DNA of 53,529 bases from Pirellulales bacterium (GTDB taxonomy: Bacteria > Planctomycetota > Planctomycetia > Pirellulales > UBA1268). Of this stretch, positions 12,693 through 19,981 are shown one piece after another. Position 1 is the first letter of the stretch. The number at the start of each line of letters is the position of its first letter. The notes below the pieces were generated by a model that searched no databases, was not told the origin of the DNA, and saw nothing but the letters and a program-made list of their open reading frames with translations. The position numbers were made by a program, and so were the translations under genes. The stretch is taken from NCBI GenBank assembly GCA_044336925.1, contig JBIIOM010000001.1:1-53529 (forward strand). The letters run 5' to 3'.

Positions 12693-13928
12693 ATGACTCA
12701 CACGAGTTTCCTCAACGCTCGGAAGGGCTTCACGCTCGTCGAGCTGCTGGTGACGATCGCGATCATCGGCATCCTGCTTGGGCTCCTCCTGCCCAATCTG
12801 GCTGCCGTGCAATCGACCGCGAAGGCTGGTGCCCAGGCCGCGACGCTGCAGTCGTTCGGCAAGGCGTTTATCGACTTCTCCACGCTCGACGGCCAGGGCC
12901 GTCTGTCGTCGAGTGCCTTCGACCACTATCGTGACGGCGACGCCACGAAGGTGGGCTGGGTGGCCGACATCGTGAACAACAAGTTCGGCAACCCGAACAA
13001 GTCGCTCGATCCGGTCAACCGGCTGAAGATCAACGAGAAGTTCACCGACCTGGCTGGCACCTCCAGCTCGGGCTCGCTGAACAACTACCGCTGGCGGAGC
13101 ACGGTCACCAACCGGCCGTCGGACGGCGCGATCGTGGGCGACGTGACGAGCATCCGCGGCACGGCCTACTTCGGCACTGCCCAGACCGTGTGGGATGACG
13201 GCTACAACAGCAACTTCTGCACGACCTGGCACTTCAGCCGCGGTGACAACAACATCAGCGGCGCGGATAACTACTCCGTCAACTCGAGCGGACTCGATGG
13301 TGAAAAGAGCCCGCTCGACGGCGACGGCCCGCTTAACGGGGCGATGCTCGGCGATCCCACGATGCTGACCACGGCCGACAAGGTTGGCCTCATGGGCGCC
13401 TCGCGGGCCGGCGACAGCGGCGACTCGACGATCGCGTCGAGCGGCAACAACACCGCCGAGAGCATCAACCGCTTCGTCGACCCGTCGGGTCGGCGGGTGG
13501 TGGCGAAGGTCGGTGACTTCACGGTCGAGTCGTTCACCGACGGCCCCGCGGCGTCGCGGAACCTCACCGCGAATCAGGGTGGTGTGTACGAGGGCACGAC
13601 GAACGCTCAGGTTCACGAGCTCAACGACATCATCCCGAACTGCAAGGCCAAGAAGATCAACACCGCCTTCGGCACGTTGATCGGCGGCGGCTATGCCAAC
13701 CTTGTCTTCGCCGACGGCTCCTGCCGCCGCGTGAACGACAACAACGGCTACGGCGGTGCCAACAAGGGTGACAGCTGGATCGGTCCCTTCCCGACCAATC
13801 CGCAGGCCACCACGGCTTCTGGCCGCACGTTCCAGCTGAACGACGGCGCGTATGACGAGATCAAGGACGAGCTTTATGCCGGCCGTCTCCGTACGCTCCT
13901 GACCGCTGGTGGCGGTTCGCAGGACTGA
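12693..13928 (+). CDS. DUF1559 protein with prepilin-type N-terminal cleavage/methylation domain (type II pseudopilin-like)
   Basis: N-terminus [24 protein letters not shown] is a class III signal (G|FTLVE). C-terminal H-X9-DG-like region GGYANLVFADGSCRRV. This family is highly expanded in Planctomycetes. Confidence 0.85.
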   Translation: MTHTSFLNARKGFTLVELLVTIAIIGILLGLLLPNLAAVQSTAKAGAQAATLQSFGKAFIDFSTLDGQGRLSSSAFDHYRDGDATKVGWVADIVNNKFGNPNKSLDPVNRLKINEKFTDLAGTSSSGSLNNYRWRSTVTNRPSDGAIVGDVTSIRGTAYFGTAQTVWDDGYNSNFCTTWHFSRGDNNISGADNYSVNSSGLDGEKSPLDGDGPLNGAMLGDPTMLTTADKVGLMGASRAGDSGDSTIASSGNNTAESINRFVDPSGRRVVAKVGDFTVESFTDGPAASRNLTANQGGVYEGTTNAQVHELNDIIPNCKAKKINTAFGTLIGGGYANLVFADGSCRRVNDNNGYGGANKGDSWIGPFPTNPQATTASGRTFQLNDGAYDEIKDELYAGRLRTLLTAGGGSQD

Positions 13929-13961
13929 GTGGAGCCCAACGTCAGCACGTCTGACACGAGA

Positions 13962-14001
13962 GCCGCGGCCGCCTTCGGGCGGCCGCGGTTTCTTTTTTTT
14001 T
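13962..14001 (+). terminator. Rho-independent terminator
   Basis: GCCGCGGCCGCC-TTCG-GGCGGCCGCGG forms an 11-bp perfect GC stem with a tetraloop. It is followed directly by TTTCTTTTTTTTT, about 34 nt after the stop at 13928. Confidence 0.85.
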
Positions 14002-14111: not shown

Positions 14112-15569
14112 ATGACGGAAGCATCACGGGCTGACGATGCGAGCCGGCTTGCTAGCGCAGTCAAATCTCCGCTGCCTGCGCGAAAGACCAACTGGTGGGC
14201 CCTTGCCGTCCTCGCCGCCGCGGGGCTCGCGGCGGTCGTTTCGTTAAAGGCCAGGTATCCGGCCAAGCAGCCGGAGAAGCCTTCGCGGCAACAGTGGATC
14301 GAGCTGCACGGCATGGCCGGGCAGTTGCGGGAGCGAGGCCGCGTCAACGAGGCGATCCAGGCCGGAATCGCCGCGGCGGAGCTCGCGCCCAAGGCCTACG
14401 GGCCCGATCACTTCACCGTGGCCGAATCGCTGAATCTGCTCGGCCTCATCTACACCGACGCCGCCCGCTATCAAGAAGCGCTCGGCGCCTATGAGCAGGC
14501 CCTGCCGATTCTCCAGACGATCTTCGGGCCCCAGAGCAAGGAGGTGGCGCTCGCCGGCAGCAACCTCGGGCTCACGCTCATGCGGCTGGGAGAGTATGCC
14601 GAGGCCCGGGCGATCTTCGAAAAGGCGCTCGAGATCACGGAGGCCACGGCGGGGCCAGGCGGCCTCGACACGGCCTCCGCGCTCAACAACCTGGCCGTAC
14701 TGCTCGACACGAGCGGCGATCACGCGGCCGCGAAGCCCGTGCACGAGCGGGCACTCAAGATTCGCCGCGGCGTTTTAGGCCCCGCCGATCCGCGGACGGC
14801 CGAATCGATGACGAACCTCGGCTGGAATATCGCCCAAACGATCGACAAGATGCCCGCCGCCGATCGTGCCAAGAACGAGAAGGAGGCGAAGTCGCTCCTG
14901 CGAACGGCCGATCGACTCTATGGGCAGGCCGTGGCCGTGCGCGGCCGCGTGCTCCCGCCCGACAGCCTCGAACTCGCCGCCACGCTCGCCGGTGCCGCGA
15001 ACGTGGCCCGCGAATCGGGCCAGCTCGATGCCGCGGGTCGGCTGGCCCTCGAGGCGCTGGCGATCCGGCAGGCGAAGCTCGGAGCGAATCATCCGACCAC
15101 GGCGGCCTCGTATGAGACGCTCGCACGGGTGCGGAACGCTGCCGATGAGGTGGACGAGGCCGGCGAGTTTTTTGCCCTGGCCACCGACGTGCGGATGAAG
15201 GCACTGGGGCCGAAACATCCCAAGACGCTCGACTCGCTCGCGACGCTCGCCGACTTCCACGTCGCGAGGAAAAACCATGCGGATGCCGAAAAGCCGCTGC
15301 GGGCGATCATCGAGATTCGCGGGAAGCTCGACGGCGACACTGCCGAGTCGCTCGTGAGGCCGCTCGAACAGCTCGCCGCCGTGCTCGACGCGACCGACCG
15401 TAAGAAGGAAGGGGACGAACTGCGGGGCCGGGCGGCGAAGATCCGTGAGGCGGTAAAAAAAGCCGCAGCGGATGCGAAAGAGGTCGCAGCGGAGGCGAAA
15501 AAGGTCGCAGCGGCACAGAAAGCAGCCGAGGCTGCCGCACAAGAGGCGAAGCCCGCTCCCGCGAAGTAA
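14112..15569 (+). CDS. membrane-anchored TPR_10/TPR_12-type (kinesin-light-chain-like) repeat protein
   Basis: ATG at 14112. One N-terminal TM helix (WWALAVLAAAGLAAVVSL). About eight 42-aa TPR_12-like repeats (for example ESLNLLGLIYTDAARYQEALGAYEQAL). Lys/Ala/Glu-rich C-terminal tail. Confidence 0.8.
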   Translation: MTEASRADDASRLASAVKSPLPARKTNWWALAVLAAAGLAAVVSLKARYPAKQPEKPSRQQWIELHGMAGQLRERGRVNEAIQAGIAAAELAPKAYGPDHFTVAESLNLLGLIYTDAARYQEALGAYEQALPILQTIFGPQSKEVALAGSNLGLTLMRLGEYAEARAIFEKALEITEATAGPGGLDTASALNNLAVLLDTSGDHAAAKPVHERALKIRRGVLGPADPRTAESMTNLGWNIAQTIDKMPAADRAKNEKEAKSLLRTADRLYGQAVAVRGRVLPPDSLELAATLAGAANVARESGQLDAAGRLALEALAIRQAKLGANHPTTAASYETLARVRNAADEVDEAGEFFALATDVRMKALGPKHPKTLDSLATLADFHVARKNHADAEKPLRAIIEIRGKLDGDTAESLVRPLEQLAAVLDATDRKKEGDELRGRAAKIREAVKKAAADAKEVAAEAKKVAAAQKAAEAAAQEAKPAPAK

Positions 15570-15597
15570 AATTGGAGTCTCCTGGAGGACGCCCCAC

Positions 15598-17667
15598 ATG
15601 GCAACGATCACATCCCCCGCGCCGGCCCACACCACATCCCGTGACGTTTTGCCTGAGGGCGTTGATGCGGGGCTGCCTGAGGCCCCCGCCGCCCCGCGTG
15701 GCAGCACGCTCCTGAAGTGGCAGATCGGCGCCACGCTCGTGGGCGGCACGCTCCTGCTCTGCTCCGTGATCGCGCAATTGCTCTGGTCGAAGGAACTCTA
15801 TCCGGCGATCCCCGCGGCGCTCGCCATGCTCATGCTCGGGGCACCGCTCGTCTACGCGGCCGTCCAGGATCTGCTCAAGGGGGAGGCGGGGATGAACGCC
15901 CTCGTCGCCCTTGCCGTGATCGGCGCGGCCGCCACCGGCAAATACCAGGAGAGCGCGGCGATCGCCTTCTTCATGATCGTGTCGGGCCTGATCGAGAAGC
16001 GGACGGCGATCGGGGCCGAGGCGAGCATCGAGTCGCTGATCAAGCTCTCCCCCACGAAGGCCGCCCGGCTCCGCGAGGGGGGCGGCGAGGAGATGGTGGA
16101 GGCGAAGGTGCTGCGGCCGGGCGATCTCGTTCGCGTCCGTCCCGGCGACAATATTCCCGCCGACGGCCGCGTGGTGACAGGCACGAGCACGATCAACCAG
16201 GCGAGCATCACGGGCGAATCGCTGCCGGTGGACAAGATCGCCGGTGACGAGGTGTTTGGCGGCACGATCAACCTGACGGGCGTGATCGACGTCGAGGTGA
16301 CGAAGGCCGGCGCCGACACGCTCCTGGGCCGCGTCAAGGACCTGATTTTGCAGGCCGAAAAGACAAAGACGCCGATCATGCGGCTCGTCGATCAATACGC
16401 CGCGTGGTATACGCCGACCGTGCTCATGCTCGTGGGTGTGGTGCTCTTCTTCGCCCTGCGGAGCGACCCCGACACCGCCTTCGACCGGGCGATCGCGATG
16501 CTCGTGATCGCCTGCCCGAGCGCCTTGATCCTGGCCACGCCGACGGCGATGGTGGCCGGGCTCTCCGCGGCTGCCCGGCTCGGCGTGCTCATCAAGAGCG
16601 TGGTCACGCTCGAGGCCGCCCGGAATCTCACGGCGATCGTGTTCGACAAGACGGGCACGCTCACGACGGGCGTGCTTCAAGTGACGCGGCTGGCGCCCCA
16701 GGAGGGCGTCGAGCCCGGGGACCTCCTGCGGCTTGCCGCCTGTGCCGAGCAGGACAGCCGCCACCCGGTCGCTCGCGCGGTGACCGAGATGGCTCGCAAG
16801 GCAAAGCTCAAGCTCTCGCGGCCGACCGAGTTTGAAGAGGTCGCGGGGAAGGGCGTGCGGGCGGAGATCGACGGCCGGAAGGTGATGGTGGGCCGCGGCA
16901 CGTGGCTCGCCGACAAGGGCAACGGCCTCTCGGCCGCGGGCGTCGCCGCAATCAACGAGATCCAGGCGTCGAGCGAGGCCGACGGGCTGAGCGTGCTCTA
17001 CGTGGTCCGCGACGGCGAACTGGCCGGCTGGATCGGCCTTGAAGACAACGCGCGGCCCGAGGCGGCCGAGGCGGTGGACCGGCTTCGCGATCTCGGTCTC
17101 AAGCGACTCGTGATCTTGACGGGTGATCGCAGGAGTGTGGCGAAGCGGGTGGCCGAGCAGATGCATTTCAGCGAATACAAGGCGGAGGTGCTCCCGCATG
17201 AGAAACTCGAAATGGTGGACGAACTCAAGGCCAAGGGGCACCGCGTGGCCGTGATCGGTGACGGCGTGAACGACGCCCCGGCTCTCGCCGCCGGTGACAT
17301 CTCGATCGCGATGGGCGCCGCCGGGAGCGACGTGGCCATTCACTCGGCTTCAATCGCCCTCATGAACTCGAACCTGAACCGCGTGCCCTTCCTGATTGAA
17401 CTCTCGCGGCGGACGATCTCCGTGATCCGGCAGAACATGATCATCGGCGGGCTCTTTATCCTCGTGTTCATGTCGCTCGCCGGGGCGGGCTACGTGACGC
17501 CCGTGTGGGCGGCGTTTCTGCACATCGTGAGCGGCCTGATCGTGATCTTCAATTCGGCCCGGCTCGTCCGCAGCGGCGAGGAGATCGAGCAGGCGGAGGC
17601 CGATCGGCTCGCGGAGATCGCCCGGCGGAAGGCGCGGACGGCCCGCATCGCCGCGGCGGCGACGTGA
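15598..17667 (+). CDS. P1B-type (heavy-metal) P-type ATPase, atypical CPS transmembrane motif, no N-terminal metal-binding domain
   Basis: ATG at 15598 lies 8 nt after GGAGGA. Motifs: TGES, DKTGTLT (GAC at 16645), SRHP, TGD, GDGVNDAPALA. TM motif IACPSALILATPTA (TGC-CCG-AGC at 16513-16521). No GMxCxxC/HMA or His-rich N-terminus. Confidence 0.9.
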   Translation: MATITSPAPAHTTSRDVLPEGVDAGLPEAPAAPRGSTLLKWQIGATLVGGTLLLCSVIAQLLWSKELYPAIPAALAMLMLGAPLVYAAVQDLLKGEAGMNALVALAVIGAAATGKYQESAAIAFFMIVSGLIEKRTAIGAEASIESLIKLSPTKAARLREGGGEEMVEAKVLRPGDLVRVRPGDNIPADGRVVTGTSTINQASITGESLPVDKIAGDEVFGGTINLTGVIDVEVTKAGADTLLGRVKDLILQAEKTKTPIMRLVDQYAAWYTPTVLMLVGVVLFFALRSDPDTAFDRAIAMLVIACPSALILATPTAMVAGLSAAARLGVLIKSVVTLEAARNLTAIVFDKTGTLTTGVLQVTRLAPQEGVEPGDLLRLAACAEQDSRHPVARAVTEMARKAKLKLSRPTEFEEVAGKGVRAEIDGRKVMVGRGTWLADKGNGLSAAGVAAINEIQASSEADGLSVLYVVRDGELAGWIGLEDNARPEAAEAVDRLRDLGLKRLVILTGDRRSVAKRVAEQMHFSEYKAEVLPHEKLEMVDELKAKGHRVAVIGDGVNDAPALAAGDISIAMGAAGSDVAIHSASIALMNSNLNRVPFLIELSRRTISVIRQNMIIGGLFILVFMSLAGAGYVTPVWAAFLHIVSGLIVIFNSARLVRSGEEIEQAEADRLAEIARRKARTARIAAAAT

Positions 17668-19139
17668 CGCGGCGCGGGATGATCGCGGCGGCAGTCGTCC
17701 TGGCAGCGGCCACGATTGCGGCCCACGCGCCGGCCTGGCGGGGGGCGTTTGTCTCGGATGACATCTCCGAGATCGCCGAGAACCCGGCGATTCGCGTGCT
17801 CTGGCCCCCGTGGGTGCCGATGATGGAAGGCACACCGATGCCGCATCGGCCGCTGCCCTACTACACGTTTGCCCTGAACTACGCCGCCCACGGCCTCGAT
17901 CCCCGCGGCTATCACGCGGTGAACCTCGCGATCCATCTCGCCAACGGCTGGCTCGTGTGGTGGGTGGGGCGGGAGATTCTGCGGCGGCTCGGAGCCGGGG
18001 ATGCCGCGGGGGGGATCGCCGTGGCGGCCACGACGCTTTGGCTCGTGCATCCGCTTTGCACACAGGCGGTCGATTACATCTACCAGCGGATCGAGTCGCT
18101 CGGGGCGCTGGCGATTCTCGGGACGGTGGCGTGTTTCTTGCGGGCGAGCCCGCAGTCCCTCGCTGGCGCTTCGGGCTTCCGGAAGATCAGCGAAGTGGAT
18201 CGGGCTTCGGGATGGCTCGCGGCGAGCGTGGCGGCGAGCGCCGCCGGCATGCTCTGCAAGGAGCACGTGGTGGCGGCGCCCGTGGTAGTGTTGCTCGTTG
18301 ACTGGCTCGTTGTCCGCTGGCGGCAGGCCGCGCCGTGGCGATCGCTTCTCGACGCGGCCGCCGCCCGGCCGGCCTACTATGCGGCGCTCTTCGCCACGCC
18401 GCTCGTTGCCGTGGCGCTCGTCGTCTTGCAGCGGCAGAGGTTTACGGACTTCGAGCAGGTGCTCGCCGGCCCGCTGCTCTATGCCGCCAATCAGCCGCTC
18501 GTGATCGGGGAGTATCTGCGGCGGGCGATCGTTCCGGCACCGCTGTGCCTCGACTGGTATCGGATTCCGATTGACAGCCCCGCGCTCCTCGTGCCGGGCA
18601 TCGGAGCCATCGCCCTGGCCCTGGCCGTGGCTGCCTGGGGCGTGACCCACGCCTGCGGGCTCGCCCTCGTGATCCTACTTTTTCTCGTGCTCCTCGCTCC
18701 CACGTCGAGCGTGCTGCCGGTCAACGACCTGATGGTGGAGCATCGGATGTATCTGCCGCTCGCGGTGCTCTGCACGGCCGCCGCCGCTGTGGGCCACGTA
18801 CTGCTCGTGCGACATTGTGCGGCGGGACGGCGGCTGGTCGTGGGCGGAGCGATCGTCGGCATCGTGGCCGCCCTGCTCGCGGCGACCACCTGGGCCCGCT
18901 GCCATGCCTATCAATCGCGGCTCGTGATGTGGGCCGACGTGGTCCTGAAATCGCCGCGCAATCCCCGCGGCTGGCAGACGCTCGCCGTGGAACTCTGGCA
19001 GGCGGGCGCGCTTGATCGGGCGCTCGAGGCCGTGGACACGAGCCTCGCGATAGTGCCCGATTCCGAAGTGTCGCTCGCGACGCGGAAGGCCATCCTCGCC
19101 GACATCGAACGGTCAAGGCCGGCCGCAGACTCGAGGTAG
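17664..19139 (+). CDS. TMTC-like GT-C membrane protein, short TPR tail (paralogue T3)
   Basis: GTG at 17664 overlaps the ATPase stop as GTGA. An alternative ATG lies at 17679. Motifs: GAFVSDDISEIAEN, GYHAVNLAIHLAN, VHPLCTQAVDYIYQRIES, CKEH, LAPTSSVLPVNDLMVEHRMYLP. Confidence 0.75.
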   Translation: MTRRGMIAAAVVLAAATIAAHAPAWRGAFVSDDISEIAENPAIRVLWPPWVPMMEGTPMPHRPLPYYTFALNYAAHGLDPRGYHAVNLAIHLANGWLVWWVGREILRRLGAGDAAGGIAVAATTLWLVHPLCTQAVDYIYQRIESLGALAILGTVACFLRASPQSLAGASGFRKISEVDRASGWLAASVAASAAGMLCKEHVVAAPVVVLLVDWLVVRWRQAAPWRSLLDAAAARPAYYAALFATPLVAVALVVLQRQRFTDFEQVLAGPLLYAANQPLVIGEYLRRAIVPAPLCLDWYRIPIDSPALLVPGIGAIALALAVAAWGVTHACGLALVILLFLVLLAPTSSVLPVNDLMVEHRMYLPLAVLCTAAAAVGHVLLVRHCAAGRRLVVGGAIVGIVAALLAATTWARCHAYQSRLVMWADVVLKSPRNPRGWQTLAVELWQAGALDRALEAVDTSLAIVPDSEVSLATRKAILADIERSRPAADSR

Positions 19140-19144
19140 ATCCC

Positions 19145-19981
19145 ATGCAATCCGATCAGTTTCAGCTTCATGCCGAGATCGAAGAGCGGCACTGGTGGTT
19201 TCGGGGGCGGCGGGCGATCGTGCGCCGACTGCTCGCCGAAATCGCGCCGCCGGTCAGCGGCCGGCGGATCGTGGACGTGGGCTGCGGCACGGGGGCCAAC
19301 ATCGCCTCGCTCACCGATGCCTACGTCTGCCACGGGATCGATCCCTCGTCCGAGGGCATCGTTTTGGCAAGGAAGCGGTTTCCCGGGGTGACATTCACCT
19401 GCGGACTGGCCCCCGACGCCTTCAGCCCCGAGGAACGGGATGCCGACGTCATGCTCGCGATGGACGTGATGGAGCACGTGCCAGACGACTTTCTGTTTGC
19501 GAGCAGCCTGCTCGCGGCGCTCAAGCCGGGGGGCCACCTTTTGATCACAGTGCCGGCCGACGCCGCACTCTGGAGCGCCCACGACGACGCCTTCGGGCAC
19601 TACCGCCGCTACAGCCGCCCCCGGCTCGAGCGAGTGTGGCGCGACCTGCCCGTGACGCCGCTGCTCGTGAGCCACGCGATGGCACGGCTCTATCCAGCGG
19701 TGCGCGCGGTGCGCGGCTGGAACCGCCTGCGCGGGCATGCGGCGGGTCGGGCCGGAACGGACTTCACGATGCCTCCCGGCCCTGTCAACGCCCTGCTCGA
19801 ACGGCTGCTGGCCGGCGAATCCAGGCGTCTGGTGGCGACGCTCGCGAACCCCGCGCGGGCCTATCGTCGCGGCGTGAGCTTGATCGCGATCCTGCGGCGC
19901 GAGCCCGGCACGATTGAGCCCGCCGGCCGACCGGCGGACGTGCCTGCCGATGTCGCGCAGCCCGAGAATAGAAGCCGCTAG
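19145..19981 (+). CDS. class I SAM-dependent methyltransferase
   Basis: Motif I VDVGCGTGANI. N-terminal HWWFRGRR and MDVMEHVPDD are typical of the Methyltransf_11/23 family. Starts 6 nt after the upstream stop. Confidence 0.85.
   Translation: MQSDQFQLHAEIEERHWWFRGRRAIVRRLLAEIAPPVSGRRIVDVGCGTGANIASLTDAYVCHGIDPSSEGIVLARKRFPGVTFTCGLAPDAFSPEERDADVMLAMDVMEHVPDDFLFASSLLAALKPGGHLLITVPADAALWSAHDDAFGHYRRYSRPRLERVWRDLPVTPLLVSHAMARLYPAVRAVRGWNRLRGHAAGRAGTDFTMPPGPVNALLERLLAGESRRLVATLANPARAYRRGVSLIAILRREPGTIEPAGRPADVPADVAQPENRSR

Follow-up and report, generated by a model that had tools for sequence, protein, structure and literature searches.

A P1B-type ATPase of an SPFH-linked Planctomycetota clade, probably captured by a glycosylation island in a Pirellulales genome

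In this study we analysed a 53,529-nt stretch of DNA from a Pirellulales bacterium (the window), which is contig C15 of a metagenome-assembled genome (MAG; G000, 2.79 Mb, 80% complete) whose closest public relatives are Pirellulales MAGs from freshwater. Our main subject is a gene at positions 15598..17667 that encodes a P1B-type (heavy-metal) ATPase (the pump), together with the gene directly downstream, T3, which encodes a putative membrane glycosyltransferase of the GT-C fold. Judging from sequence comparison, the pump belongs to a Planctomycetota clade that is almost always encoded in or beside a trio of Band_7/SPFH genes and an ABC-2 transporter. It is probable (roughly 60%) that the pump of the window is a displaced member of this SPFH-linked clade, captured by a glycosylation island while retaining its ancestral role in divalent-metal transport, for which the metal and the direction can be proposed only by analogy.

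Loci with pump relatives at 59-96% identity (n=50) were fetched from GTDB genomes, along with several metagenome contigs. Clustering of the neighbouring genes revealed a recurrent layout, in which a pilin-like gene and the pump gene are followed by an ABC-2 permease gene on the opposite strand, three Band_7/SPFH genes (matching the HflK, HflC and HflK models), an ABC ATPase gene, a second ABC-2 permease gene and a gene for a ~600-aa protein of no known family. ABC-2 and SPFH genes were present downstream of the pump in 33 of the 37 loci with at least 3 kb of downstream flank, the four exceptions being exactly the T3-bearing loci.

The same partners were observed at much larger evolutionary distances. 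Of 400 other genomes sampled across the phylum, 67 contain pump relatives (43-68% identity), and none of the 67 belongs to the class of the query. Twenty of these phylum loci (41-68% identity) were fetched, and in 18 of them (47-68%) the pump gene lies in or beside the SPFH/ABC genes: nine pumps are inside the operon and nine beside it. The in-operon pump genes are co-directional with their neighbours and located between the third SPFH gene and the ABC ATPase gene, or the second permease gene where the ATPase was undetected. In a FastTree phylogeny all the in-operon and adjacent pumps form one clade, within which the query is nested; the path to the query has local supports of 0.90-1.0, and the deepest node joining the two groups has no support value. 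A literature search returned no paper that joins SPFH proteins, a P-type ATPase and Planctomycetes.

The pump has a restricted distribution closer to the query. No close relative (E 1e-150 or better) was found in the 185 genomes sampled from other families of the same order, and same-class genomes among the matches listed contained no relative at E 1e-130 or better. An acquisition by this family of the pump, perhaps of the whole SPFH/ABC block, through transfer from a Phycisphaerae-like donor is suggested.

The pump might also be an ordinary detoxification exporter of the Zn/Cd/Co type, whose SPFH and GT-C neighbours would both be incidental. Public annotations of its homologues read Cd2+/Zn2+-exporting ATPase, the score on the cadmium-family model TIGR01512 is above the cut-off, and the patchy spread of the pump (48 of 121 genomes of the family), with identity not tracking genus, is typical of accessory transferable resistance genes. 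However, incidental neighbours would not be expected to remain linked across classes, as the SPFH/ABC genes do with pumps of as little as 47% identity. The pump also has no metal-binding domain, and neither the P1B-2 residues (Lys in transmembrane helix (TM) 5 and DxG in TM6) nor the motifs of P1B-4 (SPC and HEGxT). In the loci inspected, no regulator of the MerR/ArsR type was noted among the adjacent called genes and BLAST-labelled open reading frames, where no dedicated search was run. We therefore regard this explanation as unlikely.

In the window, the pump gene lies in a run of co-directional genes, with the following features (TPR, tetratricopeptide repeat; SAM, S-adenosylmethionine):

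12693..13928 (+), gene for a pilin-like protein of 411 aa, with the type IV prepilin signal GFTLVELLV (N_methyl E 5e-8; TIGR02532)
13960..14001 (+), strong predicted intrinsic terminator with a 14-bp stem, 11 G-C pairs and a T9 tail, which would close the transcript of the pilin-like gene
14112..15569 (+), gene for a TPR protein of 485 aa (TPR_12 E 8e-53, TPR_10), with a hydrophobic N-terminal segment and an Ala/Glu/Lys-rich C-terminal tail
15584..15589 (+), GGAGGA ribosome-binding site, 8 nt ahead of the ATPase ATG at 15598
15598..17667 (+), gene for the P1B-type ATPase of 689 aa (TIGR01525; Pfam E1-E2_ATPase and Hydrolase domains)
16513..16521 (+), codons TGC-CCG-AGC for C306-P307-S308 in TM4; CPS in 47/47 Pirellulales orthologues
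17521..17535 (+), codons for H642-I-V-S-G in the last TM helix, the H642 codon being 17521-17523
17664..19139 (+), T3, gene for a membrane glycosyltransferase of predicted GT-C fold (AlphaFold2 (AF2) model and Foldseek) with a short C-terminal TPR; FVSDD loop motif at 17748-17762
19145..19981 (+), gene for a class I SAM-dependent methyltransferase of 278 aa (Methyltransf_23 E 2e-17)

The earlier note had described four co-directional genes in the order TPR protein, ATPase, T3 and methyltransferase, and this arrangement was confirmed, including the 28-nt spacer between the TPR gene and the ATPase gene, the GGAGGA site, and the 5-nt gap that separates the T3 stop codon (TAG, 19137-19139) from the methyltransferase ATG at 19145. 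The overlap that it reported between the ATPase gene and T3 is less certain: the tetranucleotide GTGA is present at 17664-17667, but the two genes overlap only if T3 starts at GTG 17664. The other possible start, ATG 17679, would leave an 11-nt gap, and it is the start implied by a near-identical database protein of 486 aa (P0125). With a terminator upstream at 13960-14001, and no convincing terminator found by a scan inside the four genes, it is plausible that they form a single transcription unit, and the ATPase and T3 are likely co-expressed.

The earlier note had asked whether the linkage of the ATPase with T3 recurs in other genomes. For the most part it does not. T3 is directly downstream of the pump only in four loci (L011, L013, L014 and L015), whose pumps are 90-96% identical to the query, and the 33 loci mentioned above carry ABC-2/SPFH genes there instead. 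A T3-like gene with 49-51% identity to T3 follows the pump in two further loci (L012 and L066); at 89% pump identity, a T3-like gene lies 1.2 kb downstream. Within 10 kb of the pump, T3-like genes become sporadic below ~85% pump identity and rare below ~76%. In L066 (6306-7987), the pump directly before the T3-like gene was called as two genes, encoding 334 aa with the E1-E2_ATPase domain and 241 aa with the Hydrolase domain; this split pump is either a frameshifted pseudogene or the result of an assembly error.

The occurrence of the two genes across the family gives a similar picture. Among its 121 genomes, 48 have the pump and 34 a T3-like GT-C gene; both are present in 17, the pump only in 31 and the GT-C gene only in 17 (odds ratio 1.8, p = 0.15, with no correction for phylogeny or MAG incompleteness). 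Neither gene requires the other in this family, a profile that counts only against an obligatory link. The hypothesis of the earlier note, in which the pump metallates the periplasmic GT-C machinery, is unsupported by conservation, the deep cross-class partners of the pump being the SPFH trio and the ABC-2 transporter. On the whole, this metal-for-glycosylation idea is weakly supported.

The presumed former partners of the pump are still present in the genome of the window. ABC2a, the SPFH trio and the ABC ATPase gene are intact on another contig (C107:6477-13108), and ABC2b and cluster c10 are on a third (C199). Directly beside ABC2a, at C107:3526-6526 of this 13.6-kb contig, lie GT2-like and T3-like GT-C genes, which probably mark the distal end of this same glycosylation island. 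The genome contains eight T3-like GT-C genes, six of them in the window and a seventh on C107. Related genomes can be arranged in a graded series by the number of glycosyltransferase genes between the pump and ABC2a, which is zero (L010, L023), one (L018), two to three (L008, L042, L017) or more than eight (L011, L012 and the window). In family genomes of the ancestral order, the SPFH genes are ~3-5 kb from the pump. Four family genomes with a GT-C gene near a pump of 85-97% identity were checked, and in each of them the pump and the SPFH genes are on separate contigs.

In our proposal, a GT-C glycosylation island would have grown at this site, parting the pump from its old SPFH/ABC partners and capturing it unchanged into a new transcription unit. 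Among island-bearing relatives the pump is 94-97% identical and has the same TM motifs. Its sequence and TM motifs are likewise unchanged between island and non-island genomes, and thus give no sign of a glycosylation-specific function. We also observed that the pump is 97% identical to those of genomes assigned to another genus (G116 and G058) and only 73-83% identical to those of its own genus, a pattern explained either by horizontal movement of the island region within the family or by mis-binning of contig C15.

The tight arrangement of the pump and T3 might nevertheless reflect a lineage-specific recruitment, a narrower form of the hypothesis of the earlier note, in which the pump of the island sub-lineage exports a divalent cation for the periplasmic active sites of T3 or other GT-C enzymes. 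Many GT-C enzymes require divalent cations, and T3 retains the acidic loop-1 motif FVSDD with an invariant D27. The start of T3 overlaps the stop of the pump gene by 4 nt or follows it by 11 nt, the order of pump and T3 (or T3-like gene) is kept in L011, L013, L014, L015, L012 and L066, even where T3 identity is 49-51%, and six of the eight T3-like GT-C genes of the genome are within the window. On the other hand, the linkage vanishes below ~85% pump identity, a T3-like GT-C gene is missing from 31 of the 48 family genomes with the pump, and the pump is missing from 17 genomes with such a gene. Moreover, the pump sequence and TM motifs are the same in island and non-island genomes, and the cations usually needed by GT-C enzymes, Mg2+ or Mn2+, are plentiful in the periplasm. 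Such a recruitment appears quite improbable to us.

The pump itself is an intact P1B-type ATPase. It scores 566.2 bits on TIGR01525 (cut-off 346.25) and is also above the cut-off of TIGR01512. The core P-type motifs are all present, as the earlier note had stated: TGES at aa 205 (16210-16221), DKTGT at aa 350 (16645-16659), the HP dipeptide typical of P1B pumps, (R)HP at aa 388-390 (HP at 16762-16767), and GDGVNDAP at aa 554 (17257-17280). TM4 (TM6 in the 8-helix numbering) reads ACPSALILATPTA and contains an xPx motif with Cys, and the last TM helix, with H642, reads HIVSGLIVIFNSARL; both the CPS at 16513-16521 and the last-helix sequence agree with the earlier reading. Two extra N-terminal helices (residues 41-61 and 71-93) are typical of 8-TM P1B pumps. 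As had been stated, there is no heavy-metal-associated (HMA) domain according to Pfam and NCBIfam profile searches and no His-rich N-terminus, the first 45 residues having one His and no Cys and the whole protein three Cys; such N-terminal metal-binding domains are frequent in P1B pumps without being obligatory. The CopA, ZntA and sCoaT (P1B-4) structures are about equally distant from it (E 1e-90 to 1e-100). The same genome also encodes a canonical CopA-type pump on C244 with CPC, YN and MxxSS all present, a second CopA-type fragment on C108, and a P1B-5-type pump with TPCP on C267.

The P1B subgroups are distinguished by residues in TM4, TM5 and TM6; for P1B-1, P1B-2 and P1B-4 we use the definitions as general background, and those of P1B-6 and P1B6-like pumps are taken from the papers cited. 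P1B-1 pumps (Cu+/Ag+) have CPC in TM4, YN in TM5 and MxxSS in TM6; P1B-2 pumps (Zn2+/Cd2+/Pb2+) have CPC, Lys and DxG, respectively; and P1B-4 pumps (Co2+/Zn2+/Fe2+) have SPC in TM4 and HEGxT in TM6. The query differs from P1B-1 by its CPS, by I-L opposite YN in a local alignment with CopA, and by HIVSG in TM6. It differs from P1B-2 by the absence of the TM5 Lys and by His in place of Asp, and branches apart from the AD(M/T)G sequences. With P1B-4 it shares the TM6 His alone, the remainder being CPS and HIVSG. Pumps of the P1B-6 type (FezB) by definition carry D[Y/F]SCA in TM4 together with HNxxT in TM6 (bioRxiv 10.1101/2020.01.10.902569), where the query has IACPS and HIVSG. Pumps with HN in TM6 and CPC in TM4 have been called 'P1B6-like', with Mycobacterium tuberculosis CtpC as the example (Boudehen et al., PMC9374683).

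An exhaustive search of 50%-identity cluster representatives placed the query closest to sequences of 49-54% identity that have CPC and LHN(V/I)GS..NSARL and no metal-binding domain. In the tree, the query nests among these CPC/LHN(V/I)GS sequences, apart from the P1B-1 (MxxSS), P1B-2 (ADxG) and P1B-4 (SPC/HEGST) types. The nearest relatives thus have both P1B6-like features, and the query itself has CPS and H-I (the tree has no CtpC sequence). H642 aligns with the His of the P1B-4 HEGxT and P1B-6 HNxxT motifs, and corresponds to CopA M711 in a hand register set from the NS(A/L)(R/L)L motif, where the HMMER local alignment differs in register. By these comparisons, the clade of the query sits among 'HN'-type, CtpC-like (P1B-6-like) pumps and fits none of the curated subgroups tested by motif. 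The pump is thus atypical, as had been proposed, in that the TM signatures of P1B-1, -2, -4, -5 and -6 and an N-terminal metal-binding domain are all absent.

The CPS motif needs a different interpretation from the one first given. The earlier note had set it apart from the CPC, CPH and SPC forms and had taken it, with other features of the pump, as suggesting a non-canonical substrate; the overall atypicality was borne out by the subfamily comparison, but CPS is a lineage-fixed variant of CPC and marks no separate subfamily. Cys-Pro-Ser is already named among the CPx variants in reviews (PMC9045314; PMC8456098). Our literature search found no paper on a CPS motif in a P-type ATPase, the combination of Cys-Pro-Ser and ATPase giving unrelated papers only. 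The TM4 sequence ACPSALILATPTA, which includes CPS, is invariant in 47 of 47 Pirellulales orthologues. In sister lineages the motif is CPC, as in all four Phycisphaeraceae sequences, which are 65% identical and have the same synteny. A second, independent CPS branch (L079, L083 and L085) was found among the in-operon pumps, and CPT, CPG and TPC likewise occur in the clade, TPC in one branch. From this distribution, CPS is a fixed derived variant of an ancestral CPC in this Pirellulales family, which has arisen again in a second branch of the clade. Since Ser, Thr and Gly are all observed at the third xPx position within the clade, this position is tolerant, and CPS does not mark a separate functional subfamily.

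Orthologous pumps of another family of the phylum (f51; L096-L101) have C-P-T in TM4 and LHNLGS in TM6, another case in which the second Cys has been substituted. Selenocysteine was also considered for the many pump relatives with one TGA inside the match; in the eight that were fetched, the TGA codons are natural gene ends under the longer C-terminal tail of the query, and none is at the CPx site.

T3 had been called a TMTC-like enzyme, a description that held for the architecture (a predicted GT-C fold with a C-terminal TPR) and failed for the family, as no TMTC/DUF1736 profile matched T3 and none was seen in its homologues. The AF2 model of T3 is confident (predicted local distance difference test score (pLDDT) 89, predicted TM-score (pTM) 0.90), and Foldseek matched it to AglB, STT3, ArnT and PglB at probabilities of 0.93-1.0 and TM-scores of 0.40-0.48. 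Its only Pfam match is a weak one to the C-terminal TPR; neither PMT_2 nor TMTC/DUF1736 was matched, even at E values up to 10. PMT_2 was matched by 6 of 24 T3 homologues, and TMTC/DUF1736 was not seen among them (top 25 of 32 families shown). A search of PDB sequences with a T3-homologue profile gave no GT-C match, TPR proteins having swamped the results. On the basis of the confident model, the fold matches and the PMT_2-matching homologues, T3 is best described as a predicted GT-C enzyme with a much shortened TPR tail (~1-2 units, where its paralogues T2 and T4 have many). It resembles the PMT_2/TMTC-type GT-C enzymes with C-terminal TPR in its fold, acidic loop 1 and TPR remnant, but differs from them in having no PMT_2 match of its own and only ~1-2 TPR units. 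A methyltransferase gene follows the T3 orthologue in L011, L014 and L015.

Upstream of the pump, homologues of the TPR protein (cluster c15) are close to the pump in 13 loci, with both orientations occurring. The end of the membrane-anchored TPR protein in the window (15440-15569) is of low complexity and rich in Ala, Glu and Lys (…KKAAADAKEVAAEAKKVAAAQKAAEAAAQEAK…), and similar tails of variable sequence were observed in many TPR homologues near the pump. PacL1, the mycobacterial partner of CtpC, requires Glu/Ala repeats for stabilisation of the pump (PMC9374683); the likeness of the TPR tail to these repeats may be only compositional, and no DUF1490/PacL family was found among the Pfam and NCBIfam matches of the TPR protein.

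A gene of the pilin-like family is located upstream of the pump, directly or across the TPR gene alone, in 25 of the 36 loci with enough flank by clustering, and in a few more by BLAST. Its ~400-aa products (cluster c4, L008-L062) have the prepilin signal and a C-terminal FADG motif and have diverged to 34-42% identity; the gene is also directly upstream of the pump in a more distant CPC-type genome (L068). The AF2 model of the pilin-like protein is unusable (mean pLDDT 49). In Phycisphaeraceae, the gene upstream of the pump belongs to cluster c41 and encodes a protein with a PTETVYGL motif, which we take to be Sua5/TsaC-like, and with no pilin signal.

With respect to function, we propose that the pump would keep the ancestral job of its clade, in which a borderline divalent metal is moved through the cytoplasmic membrane at the expense of ATP, with Cys306 (TM4) and His642 (TM6) as putative metal ligands. 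It would probably work in concert with an SPFH scaffold and would not be dedicated to GT-C enzymes. By analogy with the hmtA locus of Pseudomonas aeruginosa and with CtpC, Zn2+ is the best guess for the metal, and Mn2+, Fe2+ and Co2+ are possible. In P. aeruginosa, PA2435 (HmtA) sits with PA2437, PA2438 and PA2439 (HflC/HflC/HflK), all four genes are up 5.6-14-fold on zinc depletion (PMC4542158), and Zur binds the PA2439 promoter (PMC8531726). This locus shares with the planctomycete cluster a core of a P1B-type ATPase and three HflK/C-type SPFH genes and is the closest described analogue by gene content; the planctomycete cluster differs in adding the ABC-2 transporter and the ~600-aa protein, and in the genome of the window the pump is detached from it.

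HmtA itself is described as a Zn and Cu importer (Lewinson 2009, as cited in PMC8456098), which raises the possibility that the pump of the window likewise imports zinc or copper under metal starvation, in the direction opposite to canonical P1B pumps. The match of gene content, an SPFH trio with a P1B pump, to the Zur-bound and zinc-starvation-induced hmtA locus favours such a role. However, the likeness to HmtA is one of gene content only, and the claim of import by HmtA comes from a single study. In addition, all structurally characterised P1B pumps that we are aware of are exporters. We consider import to be very unlikely.

Among other known pumps, CtpC has been linked to Zn or Mn (PMC9374683). 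The query keeps the TM4 Cys and TM6 His of the CtpC-like P1B6-like pumps, but has CPS and H-(I/V) instead of CPC and H-N; CtpC also has an N-terminal metal-binding domain and a PacL partner (PMC9374683), whereas the query has no such domain. In common with P1B-6 (FezB of ferrosomes, with six predicted TM helices), the query has no N-terminal metal-binding domain and has the TM6 His position; in contrast, it has ACPS rather than SCA, no Asn after the His and two extra N-terminal helices, and no fez genes were noted nearby. The P1B-4 pumps (sCoaT, PDB 7qbz; CzcP; CtpD) are similar in their short or absent N-terminal domain, the TM6 His position and a single Cys in the TM4 xPx motif, but Cys and Ser are swapped (SPC versus CPS), the Glu of HEGxT is absent from the query, and the query belongs to a separate branch of the tree.

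Several observations weigh against a captured, SPFH-linked transporter. Since no more than 48 of the 121 genomes of the family carry it (31 of the 70 of high quality), the pump is accessory, which would fit a resistance gene as well. In this family it is convergent with ABC2a and not co-transcribed with the SPFH genes, and in the present genome it is on a different contig from the SPFH cluster. The proposed order of events, in which the island was inserted, is deduced from unjoined contigs. Genuine co-expression with a GT-C enzyme is suggested by the 4 nt that the pump gene and T3 may share. Furthermore, the analogy with hmtA is based on shared gene content and not on the sequence of the pump.

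A bolder version of the proposal, which we put forward tentatively and consider doubtful, is that the clade is hard-wired across Planctomycetota to the SPFH trio and the ABC-2 transporter, that it has a one-Cys-one-His metal site, as the free replacement of the second Cys of C-P-C suggests, and serves in metal supply or starvation rather than detoxification, and that the window represents a natural uncoupling in which the pump was rewired to a glycosylation operon. It is less likely that the pump now additionally supplies the GT-C enzymes with metal.

The locus stands out for a derived CPS variant of an SPFH-linked P1B clade that would have been uncoupled from its cluster and taken into a glycosylation island. 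In this clade the second Cys of C-P-C is dispensable, having been substituted by Ser at least twice, which bears on how TM4 chemistry sets metal selectivity. The locus also calls for caution, as genes that are packed like an operon, here with a possible 4-nt overlap, can owe this arrangement to recent island growth in a single lineage, while deep synteny points to partners other than the operon-like neighbours. To our knowledge, few clients other than FtsH have been established for bacterial SPFH (HflK/C, flotillin-like) proteins, and a pump that stays beside the SPFH trio phylum-wide would offer a concrete, testable partner for this question.

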